Shown piece by piece: positions 10,313 to 36,512 of a stretch of 64,000 bases of DNA. Positions within the stretch are counted from its first letter, which is position 1. Every line of letters starts with the position of its first letter. The notes below the pieces were generated by a model, which saw nothing but the letters and a program-made list of their open reading frames with translations, was not told the origin of the DNA and ran no database searches. The position numbers and the translations under genes are program-made. This DNA is from Casimicrobiaceae bacterium. Lineage in GTDB: Bacteria > Pseudomonadota > Gammaproteobacteria > Burkholderiales > Casimicrobiaceae. Location of the stretch: assembly GCA_036505865.1 (NCBI GenBank), contig DASXSP010000002.1:6745-70744 (forward strand), written 5' to 3'.

Positions 10313-10314
10313 CG

Positions 10315-10599
10315 TTACAGATGCTTTACTTCTTCGGGCATCGGAAAAAATGTCGGATGCCGGTAGACCTTGTCGTTCGCGGGCTCGAAAAGCGGTCCAC
10401 GCTCGCTTGGCGCAGACGCATGTATGTCGGCGGAGCGCACGACCCAGATCGACACACCTTCGTTACGTCGCGTATAGACGTCGCGAGCATTCTTGATCGC
10501 CATCTCGGCATCCGCTGCATGAAGACTGCCGACGTGCTTGTGCGCGAGTCCATGCTGGGAGCGGATGAACACTTCCCATAACGGCCATTCAGTAGTCAT
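10315..10599 (-). CDS. paaB: Phenylacetyl-CoA epoxidase subunit B
   Basis: [47 protein letters not shown]. Confidence 0.96.
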
Positions 10600-21141: not shown

Positions 21142-21198
21142 GGTCCCCACTCCCTACTTTACAATTGGCCGCGAAATGCGCCCAGTTGTTGAGCTCTC

Positions 21199-21214
21199 TG
21201 CAATTTGTAAGCCA
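21199..21214 (-). promoter_or_regulatory. sigma54 promoter for PEP-CTERM gene 1
   Basis: Minus strand TGGCTTACAAATTGCA, GG-N10-GC. Confidence 0.8.
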
Positions 21215-21401: not shown

Positions 21402-22118
21402 TCAGGCCCGTCGTTGTCTGCGGAGAAGGGCCAAACTGAAGAGACCTAATCCAACCAGTGCCAACGTCTGCGGCTCGGGCGTCTGGTTTGGCGGGAAATT
21501 ACCAGTTATGGCGATCAGGCCGGTATTACCGGCACCGGGGCCGCTCGTGTTGCTGTTGAACACGTCGACGACGAAGTAGGCTAGGCCATCGCCCCCGGCC
21601 GGATTCGCGAGATTGAGCAATTGATTCACATCAATCAAGCCGGCTCGAAATACTGTGAAGGAAACGGAACCCACGGCCGAGGCGCTGCCCGCACTCGGGC
21701 CGGTTGTTGCGGCCGCATTGTTGAAGAAGCCGAAGCCATCGAAGTGCAGGTCACTCGCCGCATGACTAAGGGCGCCGGAGTAGGCGGCGGAGCTGAAATT
21801 GCCGATCGTGAGGCCTCCGCCCAAGCTGTCACTAAATCCAAAGGAACCGGGGAAGCCGGTGTTGACGATTCTGAACCCCGACGCTAGCGAGACGGATACT
21901 GTGACGGTGTTCCCGCTGAGCGATAGACCCAGCGTACCGAAGTTGCCTGTGCCGAACGCTGAGCCGCTGTTGCCTTGAGTGAAGGTGAGGCTGCAATTGG
22001 TGGTCGACGCGCATAGAGCGGCGGACGCAGGCGCGCTTGCCAGCAGCGTCCCACCTGCGACGATCAAGCCGGCGTAAAAGGCTGATGCTACGACATTGCG
22101 GAGTGACTTGCTCATCAT
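21402..22118 (-). CDS. PEP-CTERM exosortase-target protein
   Basis: Signal ending APASA; C-terminal TPEPQTLALVGLGLFSLALLRRQRRA. Confidence 0.92.
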   Translation of the reverse strand: MMSKSLRNVVASAFYAGLIVAGGTLLASAPASAALCASTTNCSLTFTQGNSGSAFGTGNFGTLGLSLSGNTVTVSVSLASGFRIVNTGFPGSFGFSDSLGGGLTIGNFSSAAYSGALSHAASDLHFDGFGFFNNAAATTGPSAGSASAVGSVSFTVFRAGLIDVNQLLNLANPAGGDGLAYFVVDVFNSNTSGPGAGNTGLIAITGNFPPNQTPEPQTLALVGLGLFSLALLRRQRRA

Positions 22119-22175: not shown

Positions 22176-22191
22176 AGCAATTCGCAAGCCA
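22176..22191 (-). promoter_or_regulatory. sigma54 promoter for PEP-CTERM gene 2
   Basis: Minus strand TGGCTTGCGAATTGCT, GG-N10-GC. Confidence 0.8.
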
Positions 22192-22427: not shown

Positions 22428-23156
22428 TTAGCGTCGTGGCCGCCCAGATAGCCTAATCGCACAGCCGCTCATGATCATCGCGTCATCCGACGCGAGAAAC
22501 AGAATGACATCGGCAATTGAGGAAGGCGGTGTCCATCCTGAGGTGTCGGCATCGGGCATCGCGGTCCGGTTTTGTGGCGTGTCGATGATGGTCGGCATCA
22601 CGCAGCACACACAGATCCCGTGTGGGCGCAGTTCTGCGGCCATGCTTTCGGTAAGCCGCACGACGGCATTCTTGGCGACGCCATAGGCTGCCATGTTGGG
22701 CTGGCCGCGTATGCTCGCGGCGGCGGCGACGTTGATGATGTTGCCCGCTTTGCGTTCGATCATGCCGGGTACGGCGGCCTTGACAGTGTTGACGACGCTC
22801 ATGGCGTTCAAATCGAACATCCGCTGCCATATCGACGCAGGCGTCTCGTGCACTGGCGGTCCCGACGCAAATCCGCCCGCGATATTGCAGAGAATGTCGA
22901 TTCGTCCAAACTTCTCGCGCGCGGTTTGGACTGCGGAGGCGATCGACGCTTCGTCGATCAAATCAGCGGCAAGAAGGAGTCGTCGCTCCGCGGAAGGGCC
23001 GTAGGCGTCGTTCAATGCGCCTGCATCAATGTCCACCAGCACGACATTGGCGCCTGACGCGTGGAACGCAGCGCCAACTGCCCGGCCCAGATTTCCGGCA
23101 GCGCCGGTGACCAGCGCCACTTTGCCATCGAAGGTCATCGCGTTAGTGAGGGCCAT
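22428..23156 (-). CDS. SDR family NAD(P)-dependent oxidoreductase
   Basis: TGAAGNLG, NIAGG, YGVAK. Confidence 0.92.
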   Translation of the reverse strand: MALTNAMTFDGKVALVTGAAGNLGRAVGAAFHASGANVVLVDIDAGALNDAYGPSAERRLLLAADLIDEASIASAVQTAREKFGRIDILCNIAGGFASGPPVHETPASIWQRMFDLNAMSVVNTVKAAVPGMIERKAGNIINVAAAASIRGQPNMAAYGVAKNAVVRLTESMAAELRPHGICVCCVMPTIIDTPQNRTAMPDADTSGWTPPSSIADVILFLASDDAMIMSGCAIRLSGRPRR

Positions 23157-24039
23157 TTAGAAGGTTCGATGGCGAGAATTGGTCGGTCAGCACCCGCGTA
23201 GCGGGCGGCCACCCGCGCTCGATCTCGATCTGCGGCAACAGCCACGTTTTATCGACGCCAAGGGCTGCAAGCTTCGTCTCCAACAGATCGGCGTTACGAA
23301 CAATATCGGATTTCGGCGGCAGGCCACCCGACTGCCACAAGATGACGCGGTTATTCTTCTTCAAGCCGAAGAAATCGCCGAAGACGCTGTAATAGGTTGC
23401 CGACTCGTAATCGTAAAGCTTGCTCACCGAGAACGTGTTGGCTGCAAGCACGCCACGATCAGCCAGCAGCGATTTGACTTCGAGCAGGAATTCGCGCGTC
23501 AGCATGTGCTCGGGAATGTACTCATGGTCGAACGCGTCGAGGACGATCAAGTTGTACATCACGCCTTGTCGCTGCATCCGTTTGACGAAGACGCGTCCGT
23601 CCTCCTCGTAGACGCGCGTATCCCGTCCGGGCTCGAAAGCGAAGAACCGCCGTGCGACCCGAACGACGGCCGGATCGATTTCCACTGCGTCGATCGATGC
23701 TGACGGGAACAGCCGTTGCAATGCACTGGGCAGCGTTCCGCCACCGACGCCAAGAATGAGAATGCGCTGGGGCGCAGGATTGAGATAAAGCGCCGCCATC
23801 ATCATCCGCGCATAGTTGAATACAAGCTTCGTCGGCTCTGCAAGAATCACGCACGATTGCCGGGCCATCGTGGTGCGGGTGAACGCCATGCATCGCAAGC
23901 CGTCTTCCTCGTAGACGAAGATATTGCGATAGAGCGACCGCTCCCGGTGCAGCACTTCGATGCCCGGATCCGTCGCGGATGCCAGCGGAGCCGCAACCGC
24001 CAGTGCATAGACCAGTCGCTTAAATCGCGACGCGCGCAT
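23143..24039 (-). CDS. Spermidine-synthase-like SAM-dependent domain protein
   Basis: ILILGVGGGT, AVEIDP, EDGR, IVLDAF, VLTDQFSP; hydrophobic N-terminus. Confidence 0.85.
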   Translation of the reverse strand: MRASRFKRLVYALAVAAPLASATDPGIEVLHRERSLYRNIFVYEEDGLRCMAFTRTTMARQSCVILAEPTKLVFNYARMMMAALYLNPAPQRILILGVGGGTLPSALQRLFPSASIDAVEIDPAVVRVARRFFAFEPGRDTRVYEEDGRVFVKRMQRQGVMYNLIVLDAFDHEYIPEHMLTREFLLEVKSLLADRGVLAANTFSVSKLYDYESATYYSVFGDFFGLKKNNRVILWQSGGLPPKSDIVRNADLLETKLAALGVDKTWLLPQIEIERGWPPATRVLTDQFSPSNLLNGPH

Positions 24040-24628
24040 TGCGAAATCCTAGAGCTGCGACCCCGATGACGGCGGATACGGCGATCATGCCGATGAAGAT
24101 CTGATTGATCTCGAACCACAGCACCATATAGAAGGACGTGACGATCGTTCCCGCGGCGCTACCGAACGTCGACACGAAGAAAAGCAGGCCGGCTGAACGG
24201 CCCGTTGCGCGGAGTTCCGTGGCCAGCAGGCGAACTGCATAGGGTGAAACCATTCCCGAAACCGCGGTAGGGATGAAAAACAGCGTCGACGATGCGAGCA
24301 ACGACGCGTAACGCGGATCGTGGACGCGATTGAAGATCCACTCGAGCACCGGATCGCCGACGATCACGATTGGCAGCGTTGCTGCGGCAGCGGCGAGGAG
24401 CAGACCAGCGAGCTTTGACTGCGTCGGGGCGACTACCGATAACTGCCCGCCGGCCAAATAGCCGACCGACAAGGCTACCATGAATACGGTGATGATGCCG
24501 CCCCACACATAAATGCTGTTTCCGAAATTAGGTGCGAGGATTCTGCCGCTCAATAGCTCGATCGCCATCACGTAATAGCCGCTCCAACCTGCAATCAGAT
24601 AAATGAGAAGCCGGTGCGACGAAGGCAT
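24020..24628 (-). CDS. Membrane protein equivalent to the MFS-like half of fused MFS/spermidine synthases
   Basis: MAIELLSGRILAPNFGNSIYVWGGII, LSVGYLAGG, STFGSAAGT. Confidence 0.85.
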   Translation of the reverse strand: MPSSHRLLIYLIAGWSGYYVMAIELLSGRILAPNFGNSIYVWGGIITVFMVALSVGYLAGGQLSVVAPTQSKLAGLLLAAAAATLPIVIVGDPVLEWIFNRVHDPRYASLLASSTLFFIPTAVSGMVSPYAVRLLATELRATGRSAGLLFFVSTFGSAAGTIVTSFYMVLWFEINQIFIGMIAVSAVIGVAALGFRNARVAI

Positions 24629-24854
24629 CAAGACGAGGATAACGGACTGGTGGCGCCGTCGGGCATTGAAGCATGCGCCGGCGGCCGTTGTCATGCGTGA
24701 CGCAAAAATAGGCGAAAACGGCTGTCGCGGGCGTTCGGAATTTTCCTACAGGACGCATTCATGCCGGACGACAAACACGTTGGCGAGCGTCCTATTGCAG
24801 CGTTTACCGACCAGCGTATCGTCGGTACCGATTTACTGCCCGCACGGAGGCTAT

Positions 24855-25071: not shown

Positions 25072-25572
25072 TCAGCCGCGACTTTCGAGATCTTCGACCG
25101 CGTCTGCGAGACGTTCTTTCTCCGCTACGATTGAAGCGTAGAGGCGCGCATTGAGGCCGGGCTGATCGCGCTCGACTAGCGCAAGCAACGACACCTCTTC
25201 CTGGCCAATGTGATCGCGCGCAAGTCGCTCGAGTCGGTCGACGCTCGCCGACATCTCCGCCGCGCTATTACGACTGTCGCGCATGACGGCAATGCACGAG
25301 GTCATTTCGTCGTGCTCGGTCAGAAACGCGCGAATGAGCGGCCCGTAATAAGGCGCCAGCGACGGATACAAAATCGTGCGCTCGACGCGATCGTGCATTT
25401 CGATCATCATGCCAATGTGCTGGACGATCGCGTCGCGCGGATCATGCGGGTTCCGCCAGGCGTCGCGATATTCGCGAAACGCTCCAAGAATCGCTTCATG
25501 CTCTCGCCGCAACAGCGCAGTTGCGCGATGGTCGACGCTCGTCAAGTCGTCAAGAGCACTTTGTAGGTCCAT
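25072..25572 (-). CDS. Hemerythrin/HHE cation-binding domain protein
   Basis: EH...HDRVERTILYP...EHDEM...HIGQEE pattern. Confidence 0.82.
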   Translation of the reverse strand: MDLQSALDDLTSVDHRATALLRREHEAILGAFREYRDAWRNPHDPRDAIVQHIGMMIEMHDRVERTILYPSLAPYYGPLIRAFLTEHDEMTSCIAVMRDSRNSAAEMSASVDRLERLARDHIGQEEVSLLALVERDQPGLNARLYASIVAEKERLADAVEDLESRG

Positions 25573-25618
25573 GGCGGAGCCCTCTTTTCGACTTATGCCT
25601 TTGCATGACGGATGCCTT

Positions 25619-25634
25619 TGCATGACGCATGCCA
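25619..25634 (-). promoter_or_regulatory. sigma54 promoter for the hemerythrin gene
   Basis: Minus strand TGGCATGCGTCATGCA, GG-N10-GC. Confidence 0.7.
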
Positions 25635-25764
25635 GCGCGATACTCCACGACAAACTCGCTCATTCGCCAAAGCCCGTGCGTAAACGCTGCACCACGCGTC
25701 GGCAAAGACTACCGGCGCGATCAATGGATTTTCGCCCGACGGCGCTCTGTGGCCCATTTGCGCG

Positions 25765-25780
25765 TGGCACAGCGCTTGCG
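25765..25780 (+). promoter_or_regulatory. sigma54 promoter for the PRC-barrel gene
   Basis: TGGCACAGCGCTTGCG, near-consensus. Confidence 0.8.
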
Positions 25781-25982
25781 ATTGGATGAACACATCGATT
25801 GGACGCATCGTGGTCCATACACCGCGATCGTGAGTCGATGACAAGATCGATCAACACGAACGCTCGCGCGAGCGAGAAAGGACATTCCCATGCCAAACCA
25901 ACGCACAACGGTAGGCCGCGGCAAGGCAACGACCGGCGCCGGCGACGTGATGCGCGATTCGATGCTGCGCGAAGACGACACG

Positions 25983-26414
25983 ATGACGGGTAATGAAGCA
26001 GTAACCGCGCGTGAGCGCGGATACGACAAGAACGCCGACAACGATTACTGGACGAGCGAAGGGCCCGGCCCAAAAGTGATGGCGGCGGACACGCTGCAAG
26101 GCGATAGCGTCTACAACGAAGCGGACGAGAAGTTGGGTGAGCTTACGGACATCATGATCGACGTGCCGACAGGTCGCGTCGCATACGCCGTCATGTCGGT
26201 CGGCGGTCTTTTCGGAATCGGCGACAAGCTCTTCGCGATTCCATGGCAAGCGCTGACGCTCGACACCGAAAACAAATGCTTCCGGATGAACGTATCGAAA
26301 GAGCGGCTCAAAGACGCGCCCGGATTCGACAAAGATCACTGGCCGACGATGGCCGATCAAACGTGGGCGCAGGAGATCCACGAGTTCTACGACGCGCGGC
26401 CTTATTGGTATTGA
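25983..26414 (+). CDS. PRC-barrel domain protein
   Basis: GPGPKVMAADTLQGDSV...DIMIDVPTGRVAYAVMSVGGLFGIGDKLFAIPWQAL...APGFDKDHWP. Confidence 0.92.
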   Translation: MTGNEAVTARERGYDKNADNDYWTSEGPGPKVMAADTLQGDSVYNEADEKLGELTDIMIDVPTGRVAYAVMSVGGLFGIGDKLFAIPWQALTLDTENKCFRMNVSKERLKDAPGFDKDHWPTMADQTWAQEIHEFYDARPYWY

Positions 26415-26496
26415 ACGAACGAGCGACGGCGCGCGCGATTACCCACCCGCCGCGGCGCAGATCGAAGGTGCATTGCGCGTCGGATTTTCCGGACGC

Positions 26497-26507
26497 GTAA
26501 GACTTAC
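26497..26507. promoter_or_regulatory. GTAA-N3-TTAC palindrome (candidate activator site 1)
   Basis: GTAAGACTTACCACG; same core at 28162 and 34420. Confidence 0.45.
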
Positions 26508-26510
26508 CAC

Positions 26511-26551
26511 GGAAATGTGGAAGCAGTAACAATGGCCTCTTCCACATTTCC
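26511..26551. promoter_or_regulatory. Perfect 13-bp inverted repeat upstream of the NtrC-type regulator
   Basis: GGAAATGTGGAAG-N15-CTTCCACATTTCC. Confidence 0.6.
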
Positions 26552-26727
26552 TACAACACTCCACAGCGCAACTTTTGCGCGGTAATCAAAAAACAATCTA
26601 AAAATCAATCCGCTTCGAGCGCATGCGCATGCGTTGCGCAGATACGGCGCAATGCGGTATGGCTCTTGCGGTTGATGTTGCCCGATCAACAGGCCCTTCC
26701 GCCGCACACTGACGCGGAGATTTCCCG

Positions 26728-28131
26728 ATGCCACATGCGTTAATCATCGACGACGACGAGATAAACAGCGCTTCGCTGGCCGAAATGATTGCCGACGAAG
26801 GGTTCACGACCGCAACGGCGCCCACATTGGCTGCGGCGCGCGAGCACTTGAAGGAAGCGCCCGATATCGTATTGCTTGACCTGGTTCTGCCCGATGGGAA
26901 CGGCATCGATTTGTTGCGCGACTTGACGCCCGATGCGGCGACTGAAGTGATTGTCGTCACCGGCCACGCTTCCATTGAAACGTCGATTGAGGCAATCCGC
27001 CACGGCGCAAGCGACTATCTGGTGAAACCGGTCAATCCGATTCATCTTCGTAATGCGCTTTCACGGGTCGCGCGTCCGGTGGAGCTCCGTGCCGAGGTTA
27101 CGGGCCTTCGCAACACGCTCCGCTCGCTTGGACGATTCGGTTCTCTGGTGGGCAGCTCGCAGCCGATGCAAAGGCTTTACGACGCAATCGAGCGCGTGGC
27201 ACCCACGAATGCGACGGTGTTCATCATCGGGGACAGCGGCACGGGAAAGGAAGTGGTCGCGCAAACGATCCACGATGTGAGTCGGCGCCGTCTACAACCC
27301 TTTCTCGCCGTGAATACCGGTGCAATCTCGCCGCAGTTGATCGAAAGCGAGCTGTTCGGTCACGAGAAGGGCAGTTTCACGGGCGCCAATCGACAGCATC
27401 GTGGCTTTTTCGAGCGCGCGAACGGCGGCACGTTGTTCTTGGACGAAGTGGTCGAGATGCCGATCGATCTTCAGGTCAAGCTTTTGCGCGTGCTCGAGAC
27501 GCGCACGCTAAGCCGCGTCGGCTCCGATGAGCCCATCGAAGTCGACGTCCGTGTGCTGGCGGCAAGCAATGCGACGCCGCAAGAAGCGGTCAATGCAGGA
27601 AAGCTGCGGCGCGATCTCCTCTATCGTCTTCAGGTGTTTCCGGTATACGTGCCGCCGCTGCGCGAACGCGACGGCGATATCGAGCTTTTGGCGAACCACT
27701 TCTTGAGCGAGCTCAACAAGGGTGCGGCAACACCGAAGTCGTTTACCCCTGCCGCGGTGGAGCGGTTGAAGCGCTATGGCTGGCCGGGTAATGTGCGTGA
27801 GCTGTGGAATGTCGTGCAACGCGCCTACATCATGAGCGACGGCCCATGGATCACGCAGCTTGGCTTGTCGAGCGAGCCGACGCTCAACGCAGAACCGTAC
27901 AGCCGATCGTTTCAAATTGCGGTCGGCGATCGCATCGACGCTGTCGAAAAACGCTTGATTCTTGCGACCGTTCAGCATACGAAAACGCGCGAGGCGGCCG
28001 CCGCGGTGCTTGGCATCAGCGTGAAGACGCTCTACAATCGCTTGCGTGCATACGAATCCGCCGCACAAGCGCCGGCTGCGCCGATTCCGGAAATTACCGT
28101 CGAGCACAACGAACGCAGCGTGCCAAGCTGA
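26728..28131 (+). CDS. sigma54-dependent response regulator (NtrC/AtoC family)
   Basis: Receiver (IIDDD, LLDL), GDSGTGKE, ESELFGHEKGSFTGA, FLDE, WPGNVREL, Fis HTH LGISVKTLYNRL. Confidence 0.96.
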   Translation: MPHALIIDDDEINSASLAEMIADEGFTTATAPTLAAAREHLKEAPDIVLLDLVLPDGNGIDLLRDLTPDAATEVIVVTGHASIETSIEAIRHGASDYLVKPVNPIHLRNALSRVARPVELRAEVTGLRNTLRSLGRFGSLVGSSQPMQRLYDAIERVAPTNATVFIIGDSGTGKEVVAQTIHDVSRRRLQPFLAVNTGAISPQLIESELFGHEKGSFTGANRQHRGFFERANGGTLFLDEVVEMPIDLQVKLLRVLETRTLSRVGSDEPIEVDVRVLAASNATPQEAVNAGKLRRDLLYRLQVFPVYVPPLRERDGDIELLANHFLSELNKGAATPKSFTPAAVERLKRYGWPGNVRELWNVVQRAYIMSDGPWITQLGLSSEPTLNAEPYSRSFQIAVGDRIDAVEKRLILATVQHTKTREAAAAVLGISVKTLYNRLRAYESAAQAPAAPIPEITVEHNERSVPS

Positions 28132-28161
28132 ACGCTGTCGCACGTGTTGCGGCGTCATCGT

Positions 28162-28172
28162 GTAACTGTTAC
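28162..28172. promoter_or_regulatory. GTAA-N3-TTAC palindrome (candidate activator site 2)
   Basis: GTAACTGTTAC about 65 nt upstream of the sigma54 promoter at 28236. Confidence 0.45.
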
Positions 28173-28235
28173 GCAGGCTTTGCAACATTTACCCTGCCAT
28201 CATGCTTTCGTGCGCCGCTCGACGGGCGCGAGCGG

Positions 28236-28251
28236 TGGCATGCGCGTTGCA
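28236..28251 (+). promoter_or_regulatory. sigma54 promoter for the CBS-DUF3175-PRTase-hydrolase-Ere operon
   Basis: TGGCATGCGCGTTGCA, near-consensus, about 50 nt before the AGGAG RBS region. Confidence 0.85.
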
Positions 28252-28303
28252 TAAAAATTCATCGCCAGCTTGCAAACGGTAATCTCACGCAAGGAGCAAT
28301 GCG

Positions 28304-28732
28304 ATGAAAGTTAGCGAAGCGATGACGCGCGACGTGCGCGTTGCGAGTCCCAATGAGACCATCCGCGACGCCGCGCGGATGATGGCCGAGATCAACGCCG
28401 GTTCGCTGCCGGTGGGCGAAAACGATCGTCTGGTCGGCGTAATCACAGACCGCGATATTGCGGTGCGCGCAGTCGCCGAAGGCAAGGCGCCGACGACGAA
28501 AATCCGTGACGTCATGAGCCCCGAAGTGCTGTACTGCTACGACGATCAGGAGTTGGACGACGTGGCAAAGAACATGGGCGACGTCAAAGTGCGGCGGATG
28601 CCCGTAGTCAACCGCGACAAACGGCTCGTTGGCATCATCTCGCTGGGCGATCTCGCGACCCACGAGGATCTCGAAACCGCCGGCGACACCGTTGCCCAGG
28701 TATCTCAACCGGGAGGTCCGCACTCTCACTAA
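28304..28732 (+). CDS. Tandem CBS-domain protein
   Basis: MKVSEAMTRDV, LVGVITDRDIAVR, VRRMPVV...LVGIISLGDLA. Confidence 0.95.
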   Translation: MKVSEAMTRDVRVASPNETIRDAARMMAEINAGSLPVGENDRLVGVITDRDIAVRAVAEGKAPTTKIRDVMSPEVLYCYDDQELDDVAKNMGDVKVRRMPVVNRDKRLVGIISLGDLATHEDLETAGDTVAQVSQPGGPHSH

Positions 28733-28742
28733 AGGGGCGCGG

Positions 28743-29090
28743 ATGGCGACGAAACATCGGCGTAGTGCAGCGGCCGCCAAGAAGCGAGGCTCCACTAAGC
28801 CGCGACGGTGGTCGCAGCAGGTGACGGAGACAAGCGACGCGCTGGATCTCGAGCGCGGCGTGTTCGCGCAGCCGAATCCCAGCTCCATTGCGCGCTCGCT
28901 AAAGCGGTCCGCCGAGCGGAGTCGGCGACGGAAGGCGGATCCCTTCCGATCCGCGATGTCGATGCTCGTGTTCTACATCAACCGTGCCGGAAAGAACCTT
29001 GGCAAGCGGCGACTTGCAGTCCTCGAGCGCGCCAAGGATGAGCTGCGGCGTCAGTTTCACCGACCGCCGCGGACGGCGAAGCACGCCTGA
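28743..29090 (+). CDS. DUF3175-like basic protein
   Basis: RWSQQVTETSDALDLE, SLKRSAERS, FRSAMSMLVFYINRAGKNL. Confidence 0.85.
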   Translation: MATKHRRSAAAAKKRGSTKPRRWSQQVTETSDALDLERGVFAQPNPSSIARSLKRSAERSRRRKADPFRSAMSMLVFYINRAGKNLGKRRLAVLERAKDELRRQFHRPPRTAKHA

Positions 29091-29095
29091 GCAAC

Positions 29096-29767
29096 GTGGC
29101 GCTGCCACTTCCAGATCGAACGGGGGCGGGTGAAATGCTCGCCGAGCGACTCGGTGGTTATGCGAATCGGTCCGATGCGATTGTCCTTGCGCTCCCGCGC
29201 GGCGGCGTTCCCGTCGGATTTGCGATCGCGGAACGTTTGCACATCGACCTCGATGTGATCGTCGTGCGCAAGCTCGGCGTTCCCTCACACGAGGAGCTTG
29301 CCATGGGCGCCGTAGCGAGCGGAGGGCTGCGGGTTCTCAATCGCGAGATCGTTGCGCTCGCTCGCATCGACGACACGACGATCGACAGAGTCGTTCGCGC
29401 CGAGCTGCAGGAAATCGGCCGCCGCGAAGCGCGTTATCGGCATGGCGCTCCTGCACCGTCGCTACGCGAGCGTACGGCGATACTCGTCGATGATGGTCTT
29501 GCCACCGGTTCGACGATGACCGTCGCCGTGCAAGCGGCGCGCCGCGAACATCCGCAGCGAATCGTCGTTGCCGTGCCCGTTGCGGCCGCGGAAAGCTGCG
29601 ACGAATTGGCGGAAATTGTCGACGAGATGATCTGCCTCTACACGCCGGAGCCGTTTCGCGCGGTCAGCGTCTGGTACGAGCAATTCGGTCAAACGAGCGA
29701 CGACGAAGTCATTGATCTCTTGAGCCGTGCGCAGTCGCACCGTCACGCCGCGCTCGATCGCCAATGA
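29096..29767 (+). CDS. Phosphoribosyltransferase family protein
   Basis: LALPRGGVPV, VRKLGVPSHEELAMGA, ILVDDGLATGSTM, VSVWYEQFGQTSDDEV. Confidence 0.92.
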   Translation: MALPLPDRTGAGEMLAERLGGYANRSDAIVLALPRGGVPVGFAIAERLHIDLDVIVVRKLGVPSHEELAMGAVASGGLRVLNREIVALARIDDTTIDRVVRAELQEIGRREARYRHGAPAPSLRERTAILVDDGLATGSTMTVAVQAARREHPQRIVVAVPVAAAESCDELAEIVDEMICLYTPEPFRAVSVWYEQFGQTSDDEVIDLLSRAQSHRHAALDRQ

Positions 29768-30453
29768 AGAGGATAGCGATGAACGCAACCTTGAGCCAAA
29801 TGGTCCAGATTCCAGCCGATGCGGGCGTCCTCGAAGGAATGCTCGAGCTGCCCGCGAACGCGCGAGGCGTCGTGCTGTTTGCGCACGGGAGCGGCAGCAG
29901 TCGCATGAGCCCGCGCAATAACTTCGTCGCCGAAAACCTCCGCGAAGGGGGCGTCGGTACGCTCCTCGTCGATCTGTTGCTGGCTGCCGAGGAAGCGGTC
30001 TATGAAACGCGATTCGATATTCCATTGCTGACGCGGCGGCTTGCCACCGTCGCGGCGTGGATTGCCGAATCGCGCGCTGCAAGCGATCTGCCGCTGGGCT
30101 TGTTTGGCGCGAGTACCGGCGCGGCGGCAGCGATCCGCCTAGCCGCTTCGGAGCGCCCGAATATCGCTGCGGTGGTTTCACGCGGTGGACGGCCGGACCT
30201 CGCTGGATCGAGCGCGCTTCAAGGGTTGCGGGCGCCGACGCTCTTCATTGTCGGCGCCGACGACCACGGCGTCATCGAGCTGAATCGGGCGGCGTATCAG
30301 GAGCTCCGTTGTCAAAAAGAGCTCGAGCTCATCCCGGGCGCGACGCACTTGTTCGAAGAACCTGGAACGCTAGCGCGCGCAGCGCAGCTGGCCCGACGCT
30401 GGTTCGAGCGCCATCTTCACGCGGACGTTCGCACGTTCGCGTTCGCGCGGTAG
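29764..30453 (+). CDS. Alpha/beta hydrolase (dienelactone hydrolase-like)
   Basis: FAHGSGSSRMSPRN, FGASTGAAAA, VSRGGRPDLA, PGATHLFEEPG; start 29764 or 29779. Confidence 0.92.
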   Translation: MKRIAMNATLSQMVQIPADAGVLEGMLELPANARGVVLFAHGSGSSRMSPRNNFVAENLREGGVGTLLVDLLLAAEEAVYETRFDIPLLTRRLATVAAWIAESRAASDLPLGLFGASTGAAAAIRLAASERPNIAAVVSRGGRPDLAGSSALQGLRAPTLFIVGADDHGVIELNRAAYQELRCQKELELIPGATHLFEEPGTLARAAQLARRWFERHLHADVRTFAFAR

Positions 30454-30459
30454 CACCCG

Positions 30460-31809
30460 ATGGCGCGCAGCGTCGATACGATCGTCGATGAAGCGATCGC
30501 GGAGTCTGCGCATCCCTTGGAAGGCGCAAGCGACGACTACGAGCCGTTCTTCAGCCTGATCGGCAACGCGCGCTTTATCCTGCTCGGCGAAGCAACGCAC
30601 GGCACGCACGAGTTCTATGCGGAACGCGCGCGGATCACGCGAGGACTAATCGAGCGTTTTGGCTTCAGTGCCGTCGCGGTCGAAGCGGATTGGCCCGACG
30701 CCTACCGCGTGAACCGTTACGTCCGCGGACAGAACCGGGATCGTAACGGCCAAGACGCGCTCGGCGGCTTTTTGCGCTTTCCGACTTGGATGTGGCGCAA
30801 TACGGACGTGCTCGCCTTCGTCGAATGGCTGCGAAACCACAACGACAGCCAACGCTGCCACGGGAAAGTGGGCTTCTACGGCCTCGATCTCTACAGCCTT
30901 TACACTTCAATCGATGCGGTGCTGCATTATCTCGATCACGCGGATCCGGAAGCCGCGCGACGCGCACGGGCGCGTTACGCGTGCTTCGATCACTTCGGGG
31001 CGGATAGCGAGCGCTACGCGTACGCAACCGCATTCGGCACGTCGCAGTCCTGCGAAGACGAAGTCATCGCACAACTGGCCGAGATGCAGCGTCGCGGCAT
31101 TCCTCCCGGCGAGGGTCTCGCCGGCGATGCGAGCGACGAGCATTTCTACGCAATGCAAAATGCTCGACTCGTGCAGAACGCCGAGGAGTATTACCGGACG
31201 ATGTTCCGTGGACGCGTGTCGTCATGGAATCTGCGAGATCGCCACATGGCGGAGACGCTCGAAGCGCTCGACGCGCACCTGTCTCGAGGCAGAGCCGCGA
31301 AGATCGTCGTGTGGGAGCACAATTCCCACGTCGGCGACGCGCGAGCGACGCAAATGGGCGCGATCGGCGAATGGACGGTCGGACAGCTTGTGCGCGAACG
31401 CTACAACGCCGAAAGCATGCTGGTCGGTTTCACAACGCATCGCGGAACGGTGATCGCGGCATCGGATTGGGGCGGCCCGGCCGAGCGCAAGCACGTACGG
31501 CCCGCGCTCGCCGACAGTTACGAAGACCTCTTTCATCGCGCCAGCGTCGGACGATTTCTTCTCCCGCTGCGCGGCGATAACCCTGCGATACGCGGCTTGC
31601 TTGCAACGCGACTGGAGCGCGCAATCGGCGTCGTCTACCTGCCCGAATCGGAACGGACGAGCCATTACTTCGACGCCAGGCTGCCGCGCCAATTCGACGC
31701 GGTCATTCACTGCGACGAAACGAGTGCATTGGAGCCGCTCGAACCGGTCGGGACGACAGCGCAAGAGCCAACGCGCGAAGCACCCGAAGCCTATCCAACT
31801 AGCCTCTAG
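30460..31809 (+). CDS. Erythromycin esterase family protein
   Basis: LLGEATHGTHEFY, AVEADWPDA, FPTWMWRN, WNLRDRHM, WEHNSHVGDARAT, LERAIGVVY. Confidence 0.92.
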   Translation: MARSVDTIVDEAIAESAHPLEGASDDYEPFFSLIGNARFILLGEATHGTHEFYAERARITRGLIERFGFSAVAVEADWPDAYRVNRYVRGQNRDRNGQDALGGFLRFPTWMWRNTDVLAFVEWLRNHNDSQRCHGKVGFYGLDLYSLYTSIDAVLHYLDHADPEAARRARARYACFDHFGADSERYAYATAFGTSQSCEDEVIAQLAEMQRRGIPPGEGLAGDASDEHFYAMQNARLVQNAEEYYRTMFRGRVSSWNLRDRHMAETLEALDAHLSRGRAAKIVVWEHNSHVGDARATQMGAIGEWTVGQLVRERYNAESMLVGFTTHRGTVIAASDWGGPAERKHVRPALADSYEDLFHRASVGRFLLPLRGDNPAIRGLLATRLERAIGVVYLPESERTSHYFDARLPRQFDAVIHCDETSALEPLEPVGTTAQEPTREAPEAYPTSL

Positions 31810-31824
31810 CTCGTAACAACGCCT

Positions 31825-32643
31825 CTAGCCCGTTACTTCCGTCGATGGACGATTGGTCGTCACGGGATATTCATGCTGCGCGGTATCAAGCGCCGCTGCC
31901 CACTGTTCCTTGGTGACCGGCACGCGCTCGGCAAGCGCTTCGCTGATCAACGTGCGCCAGTGTGCGACGACGTCAGCATGGCGCACGTCTTGCGGATGCA
32001 GTGACAAACGGAGGAGCGAACGATGCCCGGCGCGCGCGAGCTCGGCACGGATCAATGCGCGCGATAACGCACGCCGCCAACGCGTGTCGGGGCTGTAGCA
32101 GAGATTGGCCGTGCGTGAGAAACGCCAATGCGGCAGACGAAAAATCCCGCGGCGCGACGACACATAGCGGAACGGATATCCGCACTGATCGATAGCCGTC
32201 CGACTTCCTTGACCAAGTAGCCACGCGGGTGGCACAAAGCCGTACAACGGCCAACGGAGCGCCCGGAACACCTCAATGCCGTGCGCCAATCGCCATGCAG
32301 CGGCCGCTTCGTTCAGTGCGGCAAATTCGCCTTCCGCGCGAGTCAATATCCGTCGCTCGACAAACCCCCGCAGCGTACGCGGCGGCGGTTCGTCGTCGCG
32401 ATGGTGGAAGCCATGAAGCGCCAGCTCATCACCTCGCGCCAGCCGCCGGTCCAGCGCGGCGATAAAAGGGGCGTTCTTCGTGATGAGATTCTGATAATGG
32501 TAATGCGGAACGACCAATATCGTGACGGGTCGAGCGCCAAGCTCGTCGAGCATCTGCAACAGTTGTGCGCATTCCGGCCACGTCTTCGGCGCGGCGTCGT
32601 GAACGACAAACGCAACGGCGGGCGCCGCGTCATCACGCGGCAT
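31825..32643 (-). CDS. Polysaccharide deacetylase-like protein (DUF2334 type)
   Basis: VVHDAAP, LALHGFHH, AEGEFAAL, GFVPPAW, LRLSLHPQD. Confidence 0.82.
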   Translation of the reverse strand: MPRDDAAPAVAFVVHDAAPKTWPECAQLLQMLDELGARPVTILVVPHYHYQNLITKNAPFIAALDRRLARGDELALHGFHHRDDEPPPRTLRGFVERRILTRAEGEFAALNEAAAAWRLAHGIEVFRALRWPLYGFVPPAWLLGQGSRTAIDQCGYPFRYVSSRRGIFRLPHWRFSRTANLCYSPDTRWRRALSRALIRAELARAGHRSLLRLSLHPQDVRHADVVAHWRTLISEALAERVPVTKEQWAAALDTAQHEYPVTTNRPSTEVTG

Positions 32644-33751
32644 ACCGCGCCGTTCCTCTCAATTGCCAGCTTTGCACGGCGCGGTACAGCTCGAGAAGGC
32701 CATGGATCACCGCGTCCCAGCTGTAGCTTCGCTCGACGTGAGCTCGTGCGCGACGTCCCATCGCGTCGAGGTCACGCTGATAAAACGCGTGAATCGTCGA
32801 GGCGAGCGAGCCGGCGTCGCGCGCCGGCGCGAGCATGCCCGTTTCCAGCGTCACGAGCTCCGGCGCAGCGCCCGCCGCAGCCGCAATAACGCCACGTCCG
32901 CAGGCCATTGCCTCGAGCAAGACGAGTCCGAACGTTTCCTGGTCGCCGGCGTGCACGAGTCCGTCGGCGCTCGCGATGATTCGCGCAAGCTCACGCGACG
33001 AGCGCTCATAGGGACGCACGATGACGTTCGGCTGCCGCGCGATGCGATCGCCCGTGCCGAGCATTAACAAGTAATAGGGGCGCCCGAGCTTGCGGAACGC
33101 CGACAACAGCACAGACAGATTCTTCTCGCGCGCGAACCGTCCGGCATAGACCAGAATTCTCGCACCTTCGCCCAAGCCGAGCTCCCGCCGCAGCGTCCTC
33201 GTTCTTGCCGAAGGGTTGAATGTCTTGAGGTCGACGCCGAGCGGACGGACGACGACGTTTTCGATGCCCCAGCCGACCAGGCGGCGGCGCATGAATTCGC
33301 TCGGCGTGAGCACCACATCACACCGCTGGTAGAACGAACGGAGATACGCGCGCATCACCATCGCAGGAAGAGAACCGAGTCGCCGCGCAACGGCACCAAC
33401 TACGTCGCTGTGGCAGAAGGCAACCAGCGGGATGCCGAGCTCGCGCGCCGCGTGCCACGCAACCCACCCGACGAGCCCGGGATCTTCCGCCTCGATGATG
33501 TCGGGTTCGTAGCGAAGCATCGCCTCAAACCATGGCGATACGCGCCACGGCCAGCGGCGAGACGCATCGTTTGGCGCCCACGTGGCGATGAAGTGCTCGC
33601 CCTCCTCGCCGATGCCGTCGAACGGTCCCGGAACGAGCAGCGAATGGCGACACGCCGAGTTACGTGCGAGCCAGCCTCGCTTTTCCTTCAAGTAGCGCGC
33701 AACGCCACCGCCCATCGGGCCGTACAGCATCGTCGTGTCGAGAACGTGCAT
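32633..33751 (-). CDS. Glycosyltransferase family 4
   Basis: GGGVARY, YAGRFAREKNL, DGLVHAGDQETFGLVLLEAMACG; start 33751 (alternative 33862). Confidence 0.92.
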   Translation of the reverse strand: MHVLDTTMLYGPMGGGVARYLKEKRGWLARNSACRHSLLVPGPFDGIGEEGEHFIATWAPNDASRRWPWRVSPWFEAMLRYEPDIIEAEDPGLVGWVAWHAARELGIPLVAFCHSDVVGAVARRLGSLPAMVMRAYLRSFYQRCDVVLTPSEFMRRRLVGWGIENVVVRPLGVDLKTFNPSARTRTLRRELGLGEGARILVYAGRFAREKNLSVLLSAFRKLGRPYYLLMLGTGDRIARQPNVIVRPYERSSRELARIIASADGLVHAGDQETFGLVLLEAMACGRGVIAAAAGAAPELVTLETGMLAPARDAGSLASTIHAFYQRDLDAMGRRARAHVERSYSWDAVIHGLLELYRAVQSWQLRGTARYAA

Positions 33752-33940
33752 GTCGATGGGCGCGCCGTTGGGCGCGCGCCGCTCAAGAGCGCTGGCCGGC
33801 GACACCTTCCCCATCGCGGGCCAGGACCGCATCTTCGACATCGCGTTCGTCGCCACGTTCACCGCCGCACAGCCGGCTAGCAGAGCGCTAGCCTCTGCGA
33901 TCGGCCGGCAAGCAGCTGACTGCCCTCCTGCTGGTTCTTG

Positions 33941-34240
33941 CTACTTTTTATCCTTCTTTTCCTCGGTTCCCGGAGTCGCGGACGGTGTCGGCGTCGGCGA
34001 TGAGGGAGTCGCTGAGCTCGACGATGGCGGCGTCGGTGGGCTTGCGCTCGACGGTGACGATGGCGTCGACGGCGCAGGCGACGAGGATGACGATGACGAC
34101 GGAGGTGTCGTCGGAGCCGTAGATTGAGCGGTCGACGATGACGGCGGAGGGGTCGTCGACGTCGTCGTTTCGCGCTGGCATCCAGCCGCTCCGAGCACGA
34201 GTGCAACACCGATTACGAGAGACAGTTTGCGGTTCGACAT
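33941..34240 (-). CDS. Small Pro/Ser/Thr-rich lipoprotein
   Basis: MSNRKLSLVIGVALVLGAAGC lipobox followed by a low-complexity tail. Confidence 0.8.
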   Translation of the reverse strand: MSNRKLSLVIGVALVLGAAGCQRETTTSTTPPPSSSTAQSTAPTTPPSSSSSSSPAPSTPSSPSSASPPTPPSSSSATPSSPTPTPSATPGTEEKKDKK

Positions 34241-34296
34241 TGGTGGACCTCCAGCTTGGTTACCGAAATGGCGGCAACGAACTACCTTCGATGCCA

Positions 34297-34312
34297 AGCA
34301 GGATCAGTGCCA
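34297..34312 (-). promoter_or_regulatory. sigma54 promoter for the lipoprotein (and possibly GT4-deacetylase) unit
   Basis: Minus strand TGGCACTGATCCTGCT, GG-N10-GC. Confidence 0.72.
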
Positions 34313-34419
34313 TTGGGAGACGCGCGCAGAGTGTGATGGCTAGGCTCGGATTGCGCACGAATGGAACATCGCGGCGGTCGGCGCCGCGCGCGCTTCCGCG
34401 AAATTCGCCCCTGCGTAAG

Positions 34420-34430
34420 GTAATAGTTAC
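34420..34430. promoter_or_regulatory. GTAA-N3-TTAC palindrome (candidate activator site 3)
   Basis: GTAATAGTTACCACG about 110 nt upstream of the 34297 promoter; shares the CACG flank with site 1. Confidence 0.45.
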
Positions 34431-34511
34431 CACGCCGCTTTGAAACACGTAGCAACCGCCGCTACGCTAATTCCTACAGAGCCCTTGCCGCTGTGGCACA
34501 CCGCATTGCCG

Positions 34512-36512
34512 TTACAAGCCGAATATCACGATCGTCGTGCTACCTGTCAACGGGATCGAGCCGCCGCTGTGTCCCGACGCGACGGCGACGTATTGCTTGC
34601 CTTTCGCCTCGTACGTGATGACGCCGCCTGCGATCGGACCGCCGGTATCGAAGGAGTAGAGCCGCTTGCCGTTGCGCGCGTCGAGCGCGAGAAAATTGCC
34701 GCTCAAATCGCCGGTGAACAATACATTACTGGCGGTGGGTGTAAGCGCGGCGTACATCGGCGTCGGCATCTTGACGCGCCACGCCATCTTTCCGGTTTTC
34801 GGATTGACTGCGTTGATCCAGCCCGCCCACTTGCTAATGGAATCGTTCGTGCCCCAGCCGTTGGACAATCCGGTGTATGGCACCGTAGCCACCCATTTCG
34901 GATCCGGCCCCTGCTTGAACACCGTACACCAATCGATCGCGTTGACGTACAACAGGCCGGTGAGCGGACTGTGCGCCGCGCCGTTCCATTGCACGCCGGC
35001 CACGGGACAAACTCGCACGCCTTCCGGTGTCAATGGCACATCGTGATTGAGCAGCGTGGTCATCGGCAGCTTGAACACGAGCTTGCCCTCGTCGCGCGTG
35101 ACGACGTGGAGAATGCCCTCCTTGCCGGCAGTCGCTACGAGCTTCTTGCCGCCGGCATCGAACAACGAGACCACGGTCGCATCCCAATCGTGGTCGTCAT
35201 TCGGCCGCAACTGATACCACCATTTCAGTTTGCCGATGCGCGCATCGAGCGCGACGGTCGAAATGGAGAACAGATTTGCCCCGGGTCGCATCCTGTTGTT
35301 GTAATCGGGCCCTGGATTTCCCACCGGCACGAACAACGTGCCGGTCTCGCGATCGAGTGCATACGTCACCCATGCAGCACCGCCGCCGTGATTCATCGAA
35401 TCGGGCGTATCCCATGTGTTGGCGCCCGGATCGCCGGGCTTTGGAATCAGGTCGAAGGTCCACGCGAGCGTACCGTCCTCGACCTTGAAAGCCATCATCC
35501 GACCCTTGATGCCCCAATCGCCGCCTGCCTTGGCGACATAGACAATGTCATTCCACACGATCGGCGCCGCGCCGATGCCTTCACCGACGCTCCAATCGGC
35601 AACTTGACGCTCCCACAACCGCTCACCGGTCTTGGCGTCGAGTGCGTACAGGACCCCGTCTTGCGTCCCGCGTATCACGCGTCCCCCGGCGATCGCGACG
35701 CCCTTGTTCGTCGCGTTCATCTCGGGACCCTGCGGGACGTGCTGATGCGTCCATAGCTTCCGACACGTCGTCGCGTCGATCGCGTACGTGCCGAGATGCG
35801 TCGTCGCGTACAGGATGCCTTCGTACATCACCGGTCCGGTCGAGAACGTTCCGAGCTCGCCCAACTGGAACATGCATATGGGTCGCAGCTTGCCGGCGTT
35901 TTGCGTGTTGATCTGTTTCAACAACGAATAGCGCTCGCCGCGATAACCCTTGTTGTACATCAGCCAGTTGGTGGTCGCAGTGTCGGCGGCATCGAGCTCC
36001 GCTTGCGTCGGTTTCGAAGTTGTCGGCTGAGCGAGCGCTCCGTAGAGCTCGCCGATCTTGACCTGGCCGGGGGCCGCGGTTCCCGCCGCGGTGGCAGACG
36101 CAGATATCCCGGGCAACTCGAGCACGCGATCTGTCGGCGTCTTCGGCGTGAACATCTCGTTACCTGCAGGCAGGCCATTTTGGGCGAGGATGAACGACAC
36201 GATGTCCGCATATTCCTGGCTTGGAAGCGACGCACCGACACCGAGCGGCATGTTCTTGTGGACGTAGTCGTACAACTCCGAAAGCTTTTTGCCGTTCCAT
36301 TGCGCGACGAATTGCGTGCCCTTCAAAGGAGGCGCGCCCGTGCCCTGCAATTGCGCCCCGTGGCATACGGAGCACTTTTGTGCGTACTCGAAACGGCCCT
36401 TCGCGGTCTGCGCCGGCGTAAACCAACCGGTCCCGTCGGCGAAGGCAGCGGGAACGACAGAAGCTGCGACTAGAAATAAAAATACGCTGCAACGTGTCGG
36501 CGCGCACTCCAT
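34512..36512 (-). CDS. PQQ-dependent dehydrogenase with N-terminal c-type cytochrome
   Basis: Signal ending AAFA; CSVCH heme motif; W-rich beta-propeller repeats; GGAAW, GNPGPD, RPNDDHDWD, YEAKGKQYVAVASG. Confidence 0.88.
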   Translation of the reverse strand: MECAPTRCSVFLFLVAASVVPAAFADGTGWFTPAQTAKGRFEYAQKCSVCHGAQLQGTGAPPLKGTQFVAQWNGKKLSELYDYVHKNMPLGVGASLPSQEYADIVSFILAQNGLPAGNEMFTPKTPTDRVLELPGISASATAAGTAAPGQVKIGELYGALAQPTTSKPTQAELDAADTATTNWLMYNKGYRGERYSLLKQINTQNAGKLRPICMFQLGELGTFSTGPVMYEGILYATTHLGTYAIDATTCRKLWTHQHVPQGPEMNATNKGVAIAGGRVIRGTQDGVLYALDAKTGERLWERQVADWSVGEGIGAAPIVWNDIVYVAKAGGDWGIKGRMMAFKVEDGTLAWTFDLIPKPGDPGANTWDTPDSMNHGGGAAWVTYALDRETGTLFVPVGNPGPDYNNRMRPGANLFSISTVALDARIGKLKWWYQLRPNDDHDWDATVVSLFDAGGKKLVATAGKEGILHVVTRDEGKLVFKLPMTTLLNHDVPLTPEGVRVCPVAGVQWNGAAHSPLTGLLYVNAIDWCTVFKQGPDPKWVATVPYTGLSNGWGTNDSISKWAGWINAVNPKTGKMAWRVKMPTPMYAALTPTASNVLFTGDLSGNFLALDARNGKRLYSFDTGGPIAGGVITYEAKGKQYVAVASGHSGGSIPLTGSTTIVIFGL

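Follow-up and report, generated by a model that had tools for sequence, protein, structure and literature searches.

A candidate sigma-54 regulon around an orphan NtrC-family activator in a Casimicrobiaceae genome

Which regulator governs a locus in which gene families of the RpoS, EcfG and DosR type stand behind sigma-54 promoters, in an organism that itself bears RpoS? The question is raised by positions 25072-34430 of a 64-kb stretch of DNA (the window in the following) from the 4.17-Mb genome of a Casimicrobiaceae bacterium (Burkholderiales), a family known mostly from metagenome-assembled genomes (MAGs) of soil. The locus comprises, in this order, a hemerythrin gene (-), a PRC-barrel gene (+), an activator gene (+), a five-gene operon (+) and a convergent lipoprotein-GT4-DUF2334 operon (-). 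An initial annotation read it as a general-stress island run by sigma-54 and a bacterial enhancer-binding protein (bEBP), with a candidate binding site. Our analysis argues for a local regulon of one NtrC-family bEBP encoded at 26728-28131, and we put the probability of this reading at about 0.72. A sigma-54/bEBP regulon with a candidate binding site is well supported by the distribution of the motif among genomes, by ranking with an independent matrix and by a natural control.

The gene families named by the initial annotation were borne out by Pfam and NCBIfam profiles across the locus:

25072..25575 (-), hemerythrin-domain gene, PF01814 (E 3e-11), 167 aa counted from the ATG at 25575
25890..26414 (+), PRC-barrel gene, PF05239 (E 9e-17), 174 aa
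26728..28131 (+), NtrC-family sigma-54 activator gene, PF00072, PF00158, PF25601 and PF02954, 467 aa
28304..31809 (+), five-gene operon CBS-to-Ere (Pfam), consisting of the following five genes
28304-28732 (+), CBS pair gene (Pfam)
28743-29090 (+), DUF3175 gene (Pfam), start codon chosen in this analysis
29096-29767 (+), PRTase gene (Pfam)
29764-30453 (+), alpha/beta hydrolase gene (Pfam)
30460-31809 (+), erythromycin-esterase (Ere) family gene (Pfam)
31825..32643 (-), GpgD-like DUF2334 deacetylase gene, NF053788, 272 aa
32633..33862 (-), GpgS-like GT4 glycosyltransferase gene, NF053787, 409 aa
33941..34243 (-), gene of a Ser/Thr/Pro-rich lipoprotein, read from the sequence, 100 aa, lipobox LGAAGC

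The hemerythrin ATG at 25575 is preceded by GAGGG. Intergenic gaps in the CBS-to-Ere operon range from -4 to 10 nt. The GT4 and DUF2334 genes overlap by 11 nt and form one operon.

Promoters and palindromes of the locus

Promoters were scored with a simple -24/-12 position weight matrix (PWM, in bits) and searched with the pattern TGGCAY-N6-TGC, using 100 shuffles as background. Four GG-N10-GC promoters had been proposed at 25619, 25765, 28236 and 34297. All of them are present at these positions, score 13.9-17.3 bits, are intergenic and face a gene. Together with two weaker sites they are:

25634-25619 (-), sigma-54 promoter TGGCATGCGTCATGCA, 15.3 bits, precedes the hemerythrin gene
25617-25602 (-), weaker tandem promoter copy AGGCATCCGTCATGCA, 9.2 bits, made by a 17-bp direct repeat
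25765-25780 (+), sigma-54 promoter TGGCACAGCGCTTGCG, 14.8 bits, precedes the PRC-barrel gene
26655-26670 (+), weak sigma-54 promoter CGGTATGGCTCTTGCG, 9.0 bits, precedes the activator gene
28236-28251 (+), sigma-54 promoter TGGCATGCGCGTTGCA, 17.3 bits, the top score in the window, precedes the CBS gene
34312-34297 (-), sigma-54 promoter TGGCACTGATCCTGCT, 13.9 bits, precedes the lipoprotein gene

The pattern TGGCAY-N6-TGC matches four times in the window, exactly at the four named sites. Shuffled sequences gave a mean of 1.34 matches, and four were reached in 3 of the 100 shuffles. The count by itself is weak evidence; placement and conservation carry the argument. All four promoters lie within 9 kb, and the predicted distance from transcription start to start codon is 35-100 nt (~35 nt to the ATG for the hemerythrin promoter TGGCATGCGTCATGCA). 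Matches of at least 14 bits number ~83 in the 4.17-Mb genome, corresponding to ~0.2 expected per 9.4 kb. The comparison set consisted of 41 genomes including this one (G000), with 24 congeners and genomes of other families, and was supplemented by a metagenome contig (L155) encoding an activator ortholog of 82% identity. Near-identical counterparts of the PRC promoter TGGCACAGCGCTTGCG were found in G008 (TGGCACAACGCTTGCG) and G006. Orthologs of the lipoprotein promoter with an identical CTGCT -12 element are present in G008, G006, G018 and L155.

The direct repeat ATGCCTTTGCATGACGS occurs twice at 25586-25634. It duplicates the -12 region of the hemerythrin promoter, resulting in a second GG-N10-GC 17 bp downstream. 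None of the five start codons has a sigma-70-like consensus within 200 nt. The two sigma-70-like matches of the region are located inside neighbouring coding sequence, 265-280 nt ahead of the CBS and lipoprotein start codons, and their number equals that of the shuffles.

The second element is a palindrome. The recurring GTAA-N3-TTAC reported for 26497, 28162 and 34420 is located exactly there, giving three matches in the window versus 0.09 expected; none of 100 shuffles reached three. The whole genome holds 13 matches versus ~10 by first-order Markov simulation and thus shows no genome-wide enrichment. The significant part is the local clustering and the pairing with promoters, not the genome total. 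For three palindromes within 7.9 kb the Poisson P is ~2.5e-6, whereby the test was picked after the data had been seen. We evaluated the palindrome as a candidate upstream activating sequence (UAS) using a 21-nt matrix trained on nine sites solely from G006, G008 and G018, which was applied upstream of all 253 sigma-54-like promoters (at least 12 bits) of this genome. The candidate sites of the locus (no strand assigned) are:

26497..26507, UAS palindrome GTAAGACTTAC, ~155 nt upstream of the activator's own promoter
28162..28172, UAS palindrome GTAACTGTTAC, 69-74 nt upstream of the CBS-operon promoter, which ranks 2 of 253
28182..28192, second site GCAACATTTAC with one mismatch, 20 bp from the first (28162)
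34420..34430, UAS palindrome GTAATAGTTAC, 113-118 nt upstream of the lipoprotein promoter, which ranks 1 of 253
25702..25712, variant UAS GCAAAGACTAC between the divergent hemerythrin and PRC promoters, matrix score 7.5; by this shared site the two promoters rank 5 and 6 of 253

The extended consensus C-N-S-GTAA-N-W-N-TTAC-S-N-G is a 17-bp dyad, a size typical of bEBP sites. At the position of the 34420 palindrome, G008, G006, G018 and L155 carry GTAATAATTAC or GTAATTATTAC. Tandem sites 20-24 bp apart are found at the CBS operon and, in G008 and G018, at DUF4142 genes. Outside the locus, an unlinked DUF3309 gene (C117:100179) carries UAS and sigma-54 promoter. A sigma-54 site TGGTACGGCGCTTGCA of 16.9 bits at C23:15275 (+), with a one-mismatch palindrome GCAATAGTTAC 64 nt upstream, possibly marks a further member of the regulon.

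Occurrence of palindrome and activator among genomes

An ortholog of the activator at 74-79% identity is present in only three of the 24 congeners (G006, G008 and G018). Homologs at 57-62% identity are encoded by G007 and by G035 and G030, which belong to other families of the order. All 41 genomes were searched with the combined pattern GTAA-N3-TTAC, N40-160, GGCAY-N5-YTGC. It matches three times each in G000 and G006 and four times each in G008 and G018, while the other 21 genomes of the genus have two matches in total and G007, with its 57-62% paralog, has none. The backwards pattern gave no match in the genus and the spacing control (N11) two in the 41 genomes. The binomial P is ~2e-9, with orthologous sites not being phylogenetically independent. 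The test of motif conservation across orthologous loci proposed in the initial annotation thus came out in its favour: palindrome and promoter co-occur with the activator ortholog. The recognition helix ISVKTLYNRLRAYES agrees in the four proteins compared (G000, G008, G006 and L155; G008 has GVS for GIS); that of the G007 and G035 paralogs (57-62% identity) is different.

A natural control is provided by the gpgS/gpgD-like genes. GpgD-like genes are found in eight genomes of the genus. In the four ortholog-bearing genomes and on L155 the gpgSD-like operon lies next to the activator gene, with palindrome and TGGCAY-N5-CTGCT promoter. In G005, G012, G015 and G022, which have no ortholog, no sigma-54-like site of at least 11 bits was found within 4-8 kb of the gpgSD-like genes (Fisher P 0.008-0.03). 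UAS and sigma-54 promoter accompany the gpgS/gpgD-like operon solely in the presence of the activator. Based on these comparisons GTAA-N3-TTAC is likely the enhancer of the adjacent NtrC-family activator. Moreover, a CGGTAY-N6-TTGCG element precedes the activator gene in 4/4 loci examined (this genome, G008, G006 and L155), and this conserved promoter suggests positive autoregulation.

Less clear is the position of the hemerythrin and PRC-barrel genes. The variant site at 25702 is 63 and 78 nt away from the -24 elements of their promoters, and no perfect palindrome exists in the intergenic region 25576-25889. This leaves room for regulons side by side, in which the palindrome activator would serve only itself and the CBS and lipoprotein-gpgSD operons, and the hemerythrin/PRC pair would answer to another sigma-54 activator whose gene lies elsewhere. 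Sites with two mismatches abound (5353 genome-wide) and occur in this region at near-chance density, the genome has ~38 bEBP-like matches, any of which could serve some of the promoters, and TGGCAC-N5-TTGCGATT, the type of the PRC promoter, forms a conserved class of its own. However, the variant reaches its ranks with a matrix derived from other genomes, and a matching variant GCAAATCCTACCGGCGCG is kept at equal distance upstream of the PRC-barrel promoter of G006, where the PRC-barrel homolog is 78% identical. On L155, next to the 82% ortholog, a perfect UAS and a sigma-54 promoter even precede a hemerythrin gene, and a PRC gene lies 4-9 kb from the activator gene in G006, G035 and G030. We therefore regard separate control of the pair as rather unlikely and count both genes as less certain targets of the palindrome activator.

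Beyond the comparison set, soil metagenomes contain more than 100 protein clusters at 60% identity or more to the activator. A search of genome contigs for related loci yielded no homolog above 55% identity (those found were from Aromatoleum, Paraburkholderia and others), and one CBS gene was the sole synteny.

The activator and its signal input

The activator carries a receiver domain (REC; PF00072, E 8e-24) with D8-D10, phosphoacceptor D51, T88 and K110 all present, an AAA+ domain (PF00158, E 3e-66) with Walker A GDSGTGKE and Walker B LFLDEV (DE), and a C-terminal Fis-type helix-turn-helix (HTH; PF02954, E 5.5e-8). The domain features of a response-regulator-class bEBP (REC, AAA+ and Fis HTH) are thus in place. 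The sigma-54 contact loop reads GSFTGA instead of GAFTGA (A to S, F-T kept), as is common to the aligned homologs except for the L155 ortholog. In the latter (10001-11392, 82% identity) the loop is GSVTGA with Phe replaced by Val, which could be a sequencing variant or an altered sigma-54 contact. RpoN is encoded on contig C51, in a 554-aa frame that includes the RpoN box ARRTIAKYR.

No NCBIfam equivalog cut-off was reached by the activator (NtrC, AtoC, PrsR, ZraR and others). The scores are 367.8 versus 558.6 for NtrC (TIGR01818), 367.5 versus 714 for AtoC (NF008469) and 351.9 versus 502.6 for PrsR (TIGR02915). We therefore class it as a generic bEBP of the NtrC family without a named specificity. 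The nearest solved structures, 4l4u (closest) and 1ny5, are both annotated merely as NtrC-family regulators. An identity as PrsR, the PEP-CTERM regulator, was rejected owing to the score under the cut-off, the differing promoter type TGGCTT and the missing palindrome.

Two sigma-54 sites of another type, TGGCTTACAAATTGCA at 21199-21214 (-) and TGGCTTGCGAATTGCT at 22176-22191 (-), score ~14 bits each and precede PEP-CTERM genes (20455-21150 and 21402-22118). Since no GTAA-N3-TTAC is found nearby, they probably belong to a separate PrsR-type regulon. These two PEP-CTERM genes form part of the upstream flank of the locus together with SDR and spermidine-synthase-like genes; the downstream flank is a PQQ quinohaemoprotein dehydrogenase gene. 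On the strand of the hemerythrin gene and 3' of it, two adjoining ORFs of 224 and 298 aa (23143-24694, -) jointly resemble a fused MFS/spermidine-synthase family (NF037959, PF01564). Either one gene has been split here, or the fusion exists in the form of two genes.

The features described so far, their conservation and their co-occurrence with the regulator are observations, from which we infer binding and sigma-54 dependence. Phosphorylation of D51 in the receiver would allow the activator to bind the ~17-bp palindrome 50-155 nt upstream of -24/-12 promoters. The AAA+ ATPase with its GSFTGA loop would then open complexes of the sigma-54 holoenzyme, i.e. ATP-dependent activation from an upstream site is predicted. 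Putative targets are the activator's own gene by the weak CGGTAY-N6-TTGCG promoter, the CBS-DUF3175-PRTase-hydrolase-Ere operon, the lipoprotein-GpgS-GpgD-like operon and the unlinked DUF3309 gene on contig C117. The divergent hemerythrin and PRC-barrel genes would be added by their shared variant site.

Where does the phosphoryl group come from? According to the initial annotation there is no kinase gene nearby, and this holds: none of the 37 HATPase_c matches of the genome is on the 71-kb contig carrying the window, and the flanking genes encode no kinase. The search for a cognate kinase that had been proposed with it was without success in this genome. No homolog of the ChpT-like partner of related loci (see below) exceeds 25 bits. 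The activator is truly orphan here. On C100 a hybrid-kinase-like gene of 370 aa shows only 27% similarity and lacks both UAS and promoter; hence it was not assigned as cognate kinase. A 531-aa "REC protein" beside the G006 ortholog is probably an antisense-ORF artefact, a short REC gene and a ChpT-like gene being located on the other strand.

In the relatives the situation is different. A gene of 354-431 aa follows the activator gene in G008, G006, G018, L155 and a second metagenome contig; its product shows weak HisKA or HPTransfase (ChpT-like) similarity. Within ~10 kb of the activator, G008, L155 and the second metagenome contig also encode a DUF4118-PAS-PAS-HisKA-HATPase(-REC) hybrid kinase. 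Hybrid kinase, ChpT-like protein and activator together suggest a multistep phosphorelay. The orphan state looks derived, because relatives encode the ChpT-like protein beside the regulator and several of them the hybrid kinase as well. In the apparent ancestral layout one palindrome would have been located between the divergent promoters of the activator gene and of a small envelope protein-gpgSD operon, with the ChpT-like gene following the activator gene and the hybrid DUF4118-PAS kinase nearby, as in G008 and the two metagenome contigs. The locus studied here was rearranged: the single palindrome now exists as separate copies at 26497 (activator) and 34420 (lipoprotein-gpgSD), the relay genes are missing and a dormancy-type operon is under an enhancer copy.

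Two side observations concern these ancestral elements. At C108:56616-58139 (-) a DUF4118-PAS-PAS protein is encoded that is 43% identical to the sensor half of the G008 hybrid kinase. It ends right after the second PAS and before HisKA, its stop codon overlapping the next ATG. By its sequence it is a sensor module without transmitter, an ortholog or paralog of the G008 kinase. At 34496-34512 (+), 76 nt from the 34420 palindrome, TGGCACACCGCATTGCC comes close to the full sigma-54 consensus except that its spacing is GG-N11-GC; it is directed into the 3' end of the PQQ dehydrogenase gene. It may be what is left, after decay, of the divergent activator promoter of the ancestor, or a chance match.

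Such losses could also mean that the activator is a decaying relic in this genome: with its phosphorelay gone it would never be switched on, and the promoters would either be silent or serve other factors. In favour of this, there is no counterpart here of the ChpT-like gene found behind the ortholog in G006, G008, G018 and L155, the nearest relative of the syntenic hybrid kinase is the protein on C108 lacking a transmitter, and the 71-kb contig has no kinase gene. Against decay stands an intact activator ORF with all catalytic and phosphoacceptor residues, as well as three perfect palindromes and strong promoters that have been kept. Moreover, the CBS-to-Ere operon and the DUF3309 gene carry UAS and promoter only in this genome, which suggests recent use. 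A relic is hence improbable.

A functional local regulon of the activator remains our preferred reading, against which several further points weigh besides the imperfect site at the hemerythrin/PRC promoters and the other bEBP-like proteins of the genome. The sigma-54 PWM is only ~1.7-fold enriched genome-wide over a Markov background, and single sites are weak alone. The four ortholog-bearing genomes may form one subclade, so that the co-occurrence partly reflects shared ancestry. As neither cognate kinase nor phosphotransferase was found, activity in this genome needs cross-talk or acetyl phosphate. Finally, the two enzymes of the lipoprotein operon stay just below the NCBIfam cut-offs, with 411.6 bits versus 480 for the GpgS-like protein (NF053787, full model length) and 271.6 versus 280 for the GpgD-like protein (NF053788, full length). 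These are the best NCBIfam models for the GT4/DUF2334 pair, which would be close relatives of GpgS/GpgD with membership not certified.

Regulon content and comparison with known systems

Apart from the activator gene, the targets conserved in the clade (G006, G008, G018 and L155) comprise GpgS-like and GpgD-like genes behind the gene of a small envelope protein (lipoprotein or DUF883), GalU and a glycosyltransferase-FAD-oxidoreductase fusion (GT-FAD) as a divergent pair, which on L155 is preceded by the hemerythrin gene, DUF4142 genes, and in G006 and L155 a GT4-led operon including GT9 and carbamoyltransferase genes. Homologous small lipoproteins hold the position equivalent to ours in G006, G008 and G018. 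This genome has neither the GalU/GT-FAD pair nor DUF4142; in their place it has the CBS-to-Ere operon, the DUF3309 gene and the hemerythrin/PRC pair. The CBS-to-Ere genes occur in none of the orthologous loci examined, their linkage to the regulator being seen only in this genome. DUF3175 is found in three or four of the other 40 genomes, and the three strong cases show no link to CBS or PRTase genes or to a sigma-54 site.

Judged from these genes, the conserved theme of the regulon is envelope and lipid remodelling and glycosylation, not classic stress genes. RpoS (TIGR02394) exceeds its cut-off in this genome (C7:19152-19988) and also in G001, G003 and G010; sigma-54 is therefore not a substitute for the usual stress sigma factor. 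RpoS does not exceed the cut-off in G006, G007 and G008 (93-98% complete), two of which carry the activator ortholog, and it appears patchy within the genus. The label "general-stress island" is only partly supported, because the core is lipid/envelope, linkage of the CBS-to-Ere operon to the regulator was seen in this genome only, the hemerythrin/PRC link depends on a variant site and RpoS is present. From the reputation of the gene families a stress or dormancy reading is nevertheless plausible.

One may go further and assume a pure envelope or membrane-remodelling programme (lipid head-group, lipopolysaccharide (LPS) or exopolysaccharide (EPS) glycosylation) with no general-stress or dormancy function, the stress-type genes being recent passengers under sigma-54 promoters. 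The conserved glycosylation and lipid genes listed above and the restriction of the CBS-to-Ere operon and of the rare DUF3175 speak for it, and it fits the view of sigma-54 as controller of the cell exterior (PMC3162934). On the other hand, stress-type small proteins recur among the targets of relatives (DUF4142, the DUF883 protein, hemerythrin), and a holin-X-like membrane protein is located behind a sigma-54 promoter in the G008 locus. Glucosaminyl-phosphatidylglycerol (GlcN-PG), according to the searched text of PMC12713373, also rises under acid or stationary-phase stress. Given these recurring targets and the stress response of the lipid, the envelope and the stress readings overlap and are not mutually exclusive. 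We give the pure envelope programme a little less than even odds.

The lipoprotein-GpgS-GpgD-like operon probably makes a lipid of the glucosaminyl-phosphatidylglycerol type which would lower the negative membrane charge. The lipid product, like the physiological role and the inducing signal, is here predicted from sequence. Combining these elements, a new bEBP subfamily can be envisaged, mainly of Casimicrobiaceae and related soil Burkholderiales MAGs. It would act as a dedicated, autoregulated quiescence switch fed by the hybrid PAS kinase and the ChpT-like phosphotransferase, and would tie DosR-like dormancy genes to surface glycosylation and to a lowered membrane charge by way of a GlcN-PG-type lipid, the relay having been lost and the regulon rewired in this genome. 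This idea is tentative and its odds are clearly short of even. If true, the genome would illustrate how rapidly a regulon can turn over in nature while its enhancer stays fixed.

The understanding of sigma-54 is left unchanged by our data. They provide a well-supported finding at the level of annotation for an uncharacterised member of a very well-known regulator class, with a specific, testable enhancer sequence and a target list for a sigma-54 activator common in soil metagenomes; the predicted motif and regulon are usable as such. The gain and loss of targets and phosphorelay between congeners make a compact case of regulon turnover. The link to GlcN-PG is modestly interesting. A first regulatory input is thereby proposed for the recently discovered GlcN-PG lipid pathway, and for gpgSD the activator would be the first regulator put forward.

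With NtrC/NtrC1-type bEBPs the activator shares the REC-AAA+-Fis HTH architecture, the phosphoacceptor Asp, the sigma-54 contact loop and a dyad UAS, sometimes in tandem, 50-155 nt upstream of GG-N10-GC promoters. It differs from NtrC, AtoC and PrsR by scores under the equivalog cut-offs and by GSFTGA in place of GAFTGA. To our knowledge GTAA-N3-TTAC also differs from the NtrC, NifA and LuxO boxes. It fits the loose GT-N7-AC form of the NorR site, but in NorR a GAF domain takes the place of the receiver.

The relay of the relatives resembles CckA-ChpT systems in the co-encoded hybrid histidine kinase (HisKA-HATPase-REC), ChpT-like HPTransfase-family protein and REC-containing output regulator. 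In contrast to those, the output is a sigma-54 activator and not CtrA, the HPTransfase match is weak and the relay genes are absent in the genome studied.

DUF883 and DUF3309-type small membrane proteins are typical members of the EcfG regulon. As in the alphaproteobacterial EcfG regulon, for instance of Sphingomonas melonis, PRC-barrel genes are among the targets (PMC6599016); sigma factor and promoter type are different, and RpoS is encoded in addition.

The CBS-to-Ere operon recalls the DosR regulon of Mycobacterium tuberculosis, where the same unusual set of CBS pair, PRTase, alpha/beta hydrolase and Ere domains is found among co-regulated genes of the non-growing state. The regulator there, DosR, is of the NarL type, and Rv2626c (CBS pair) and Rv0571c are members of its regulon. 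Rv2030c, another member, is a PRTase and erythromycin-esterase protein (PMC4410610). Here the domains are on separate genes and not fused, the predicted regulator is a sigma-54 bEBP and the grouping is known from sequence.

The closest parallel to the lipid operon is gpgSDF of Pseudomonas aeruginosa. As far as the searched text of PMC12713373 goes, GpgS and GpgD synthesize glucosaminyl-phosphatidylglycerol, which is reported up under acid or stationary-phase conditions, and that part of the text mentions neither RpoN nor a gpgSDF regulator. Both organisms have a GT4 gene and, behind it in a single operon, a gene for a DUF2334 deacetylase (PMC12713373). Unlike in P. aeruginosa, gpgD is here not followed by a third gene, which would place a gpgF flippase, if any, outside the operon, while a small lipoprotein gene precedes the pair and a sigma-54 activator is predicted to control it.

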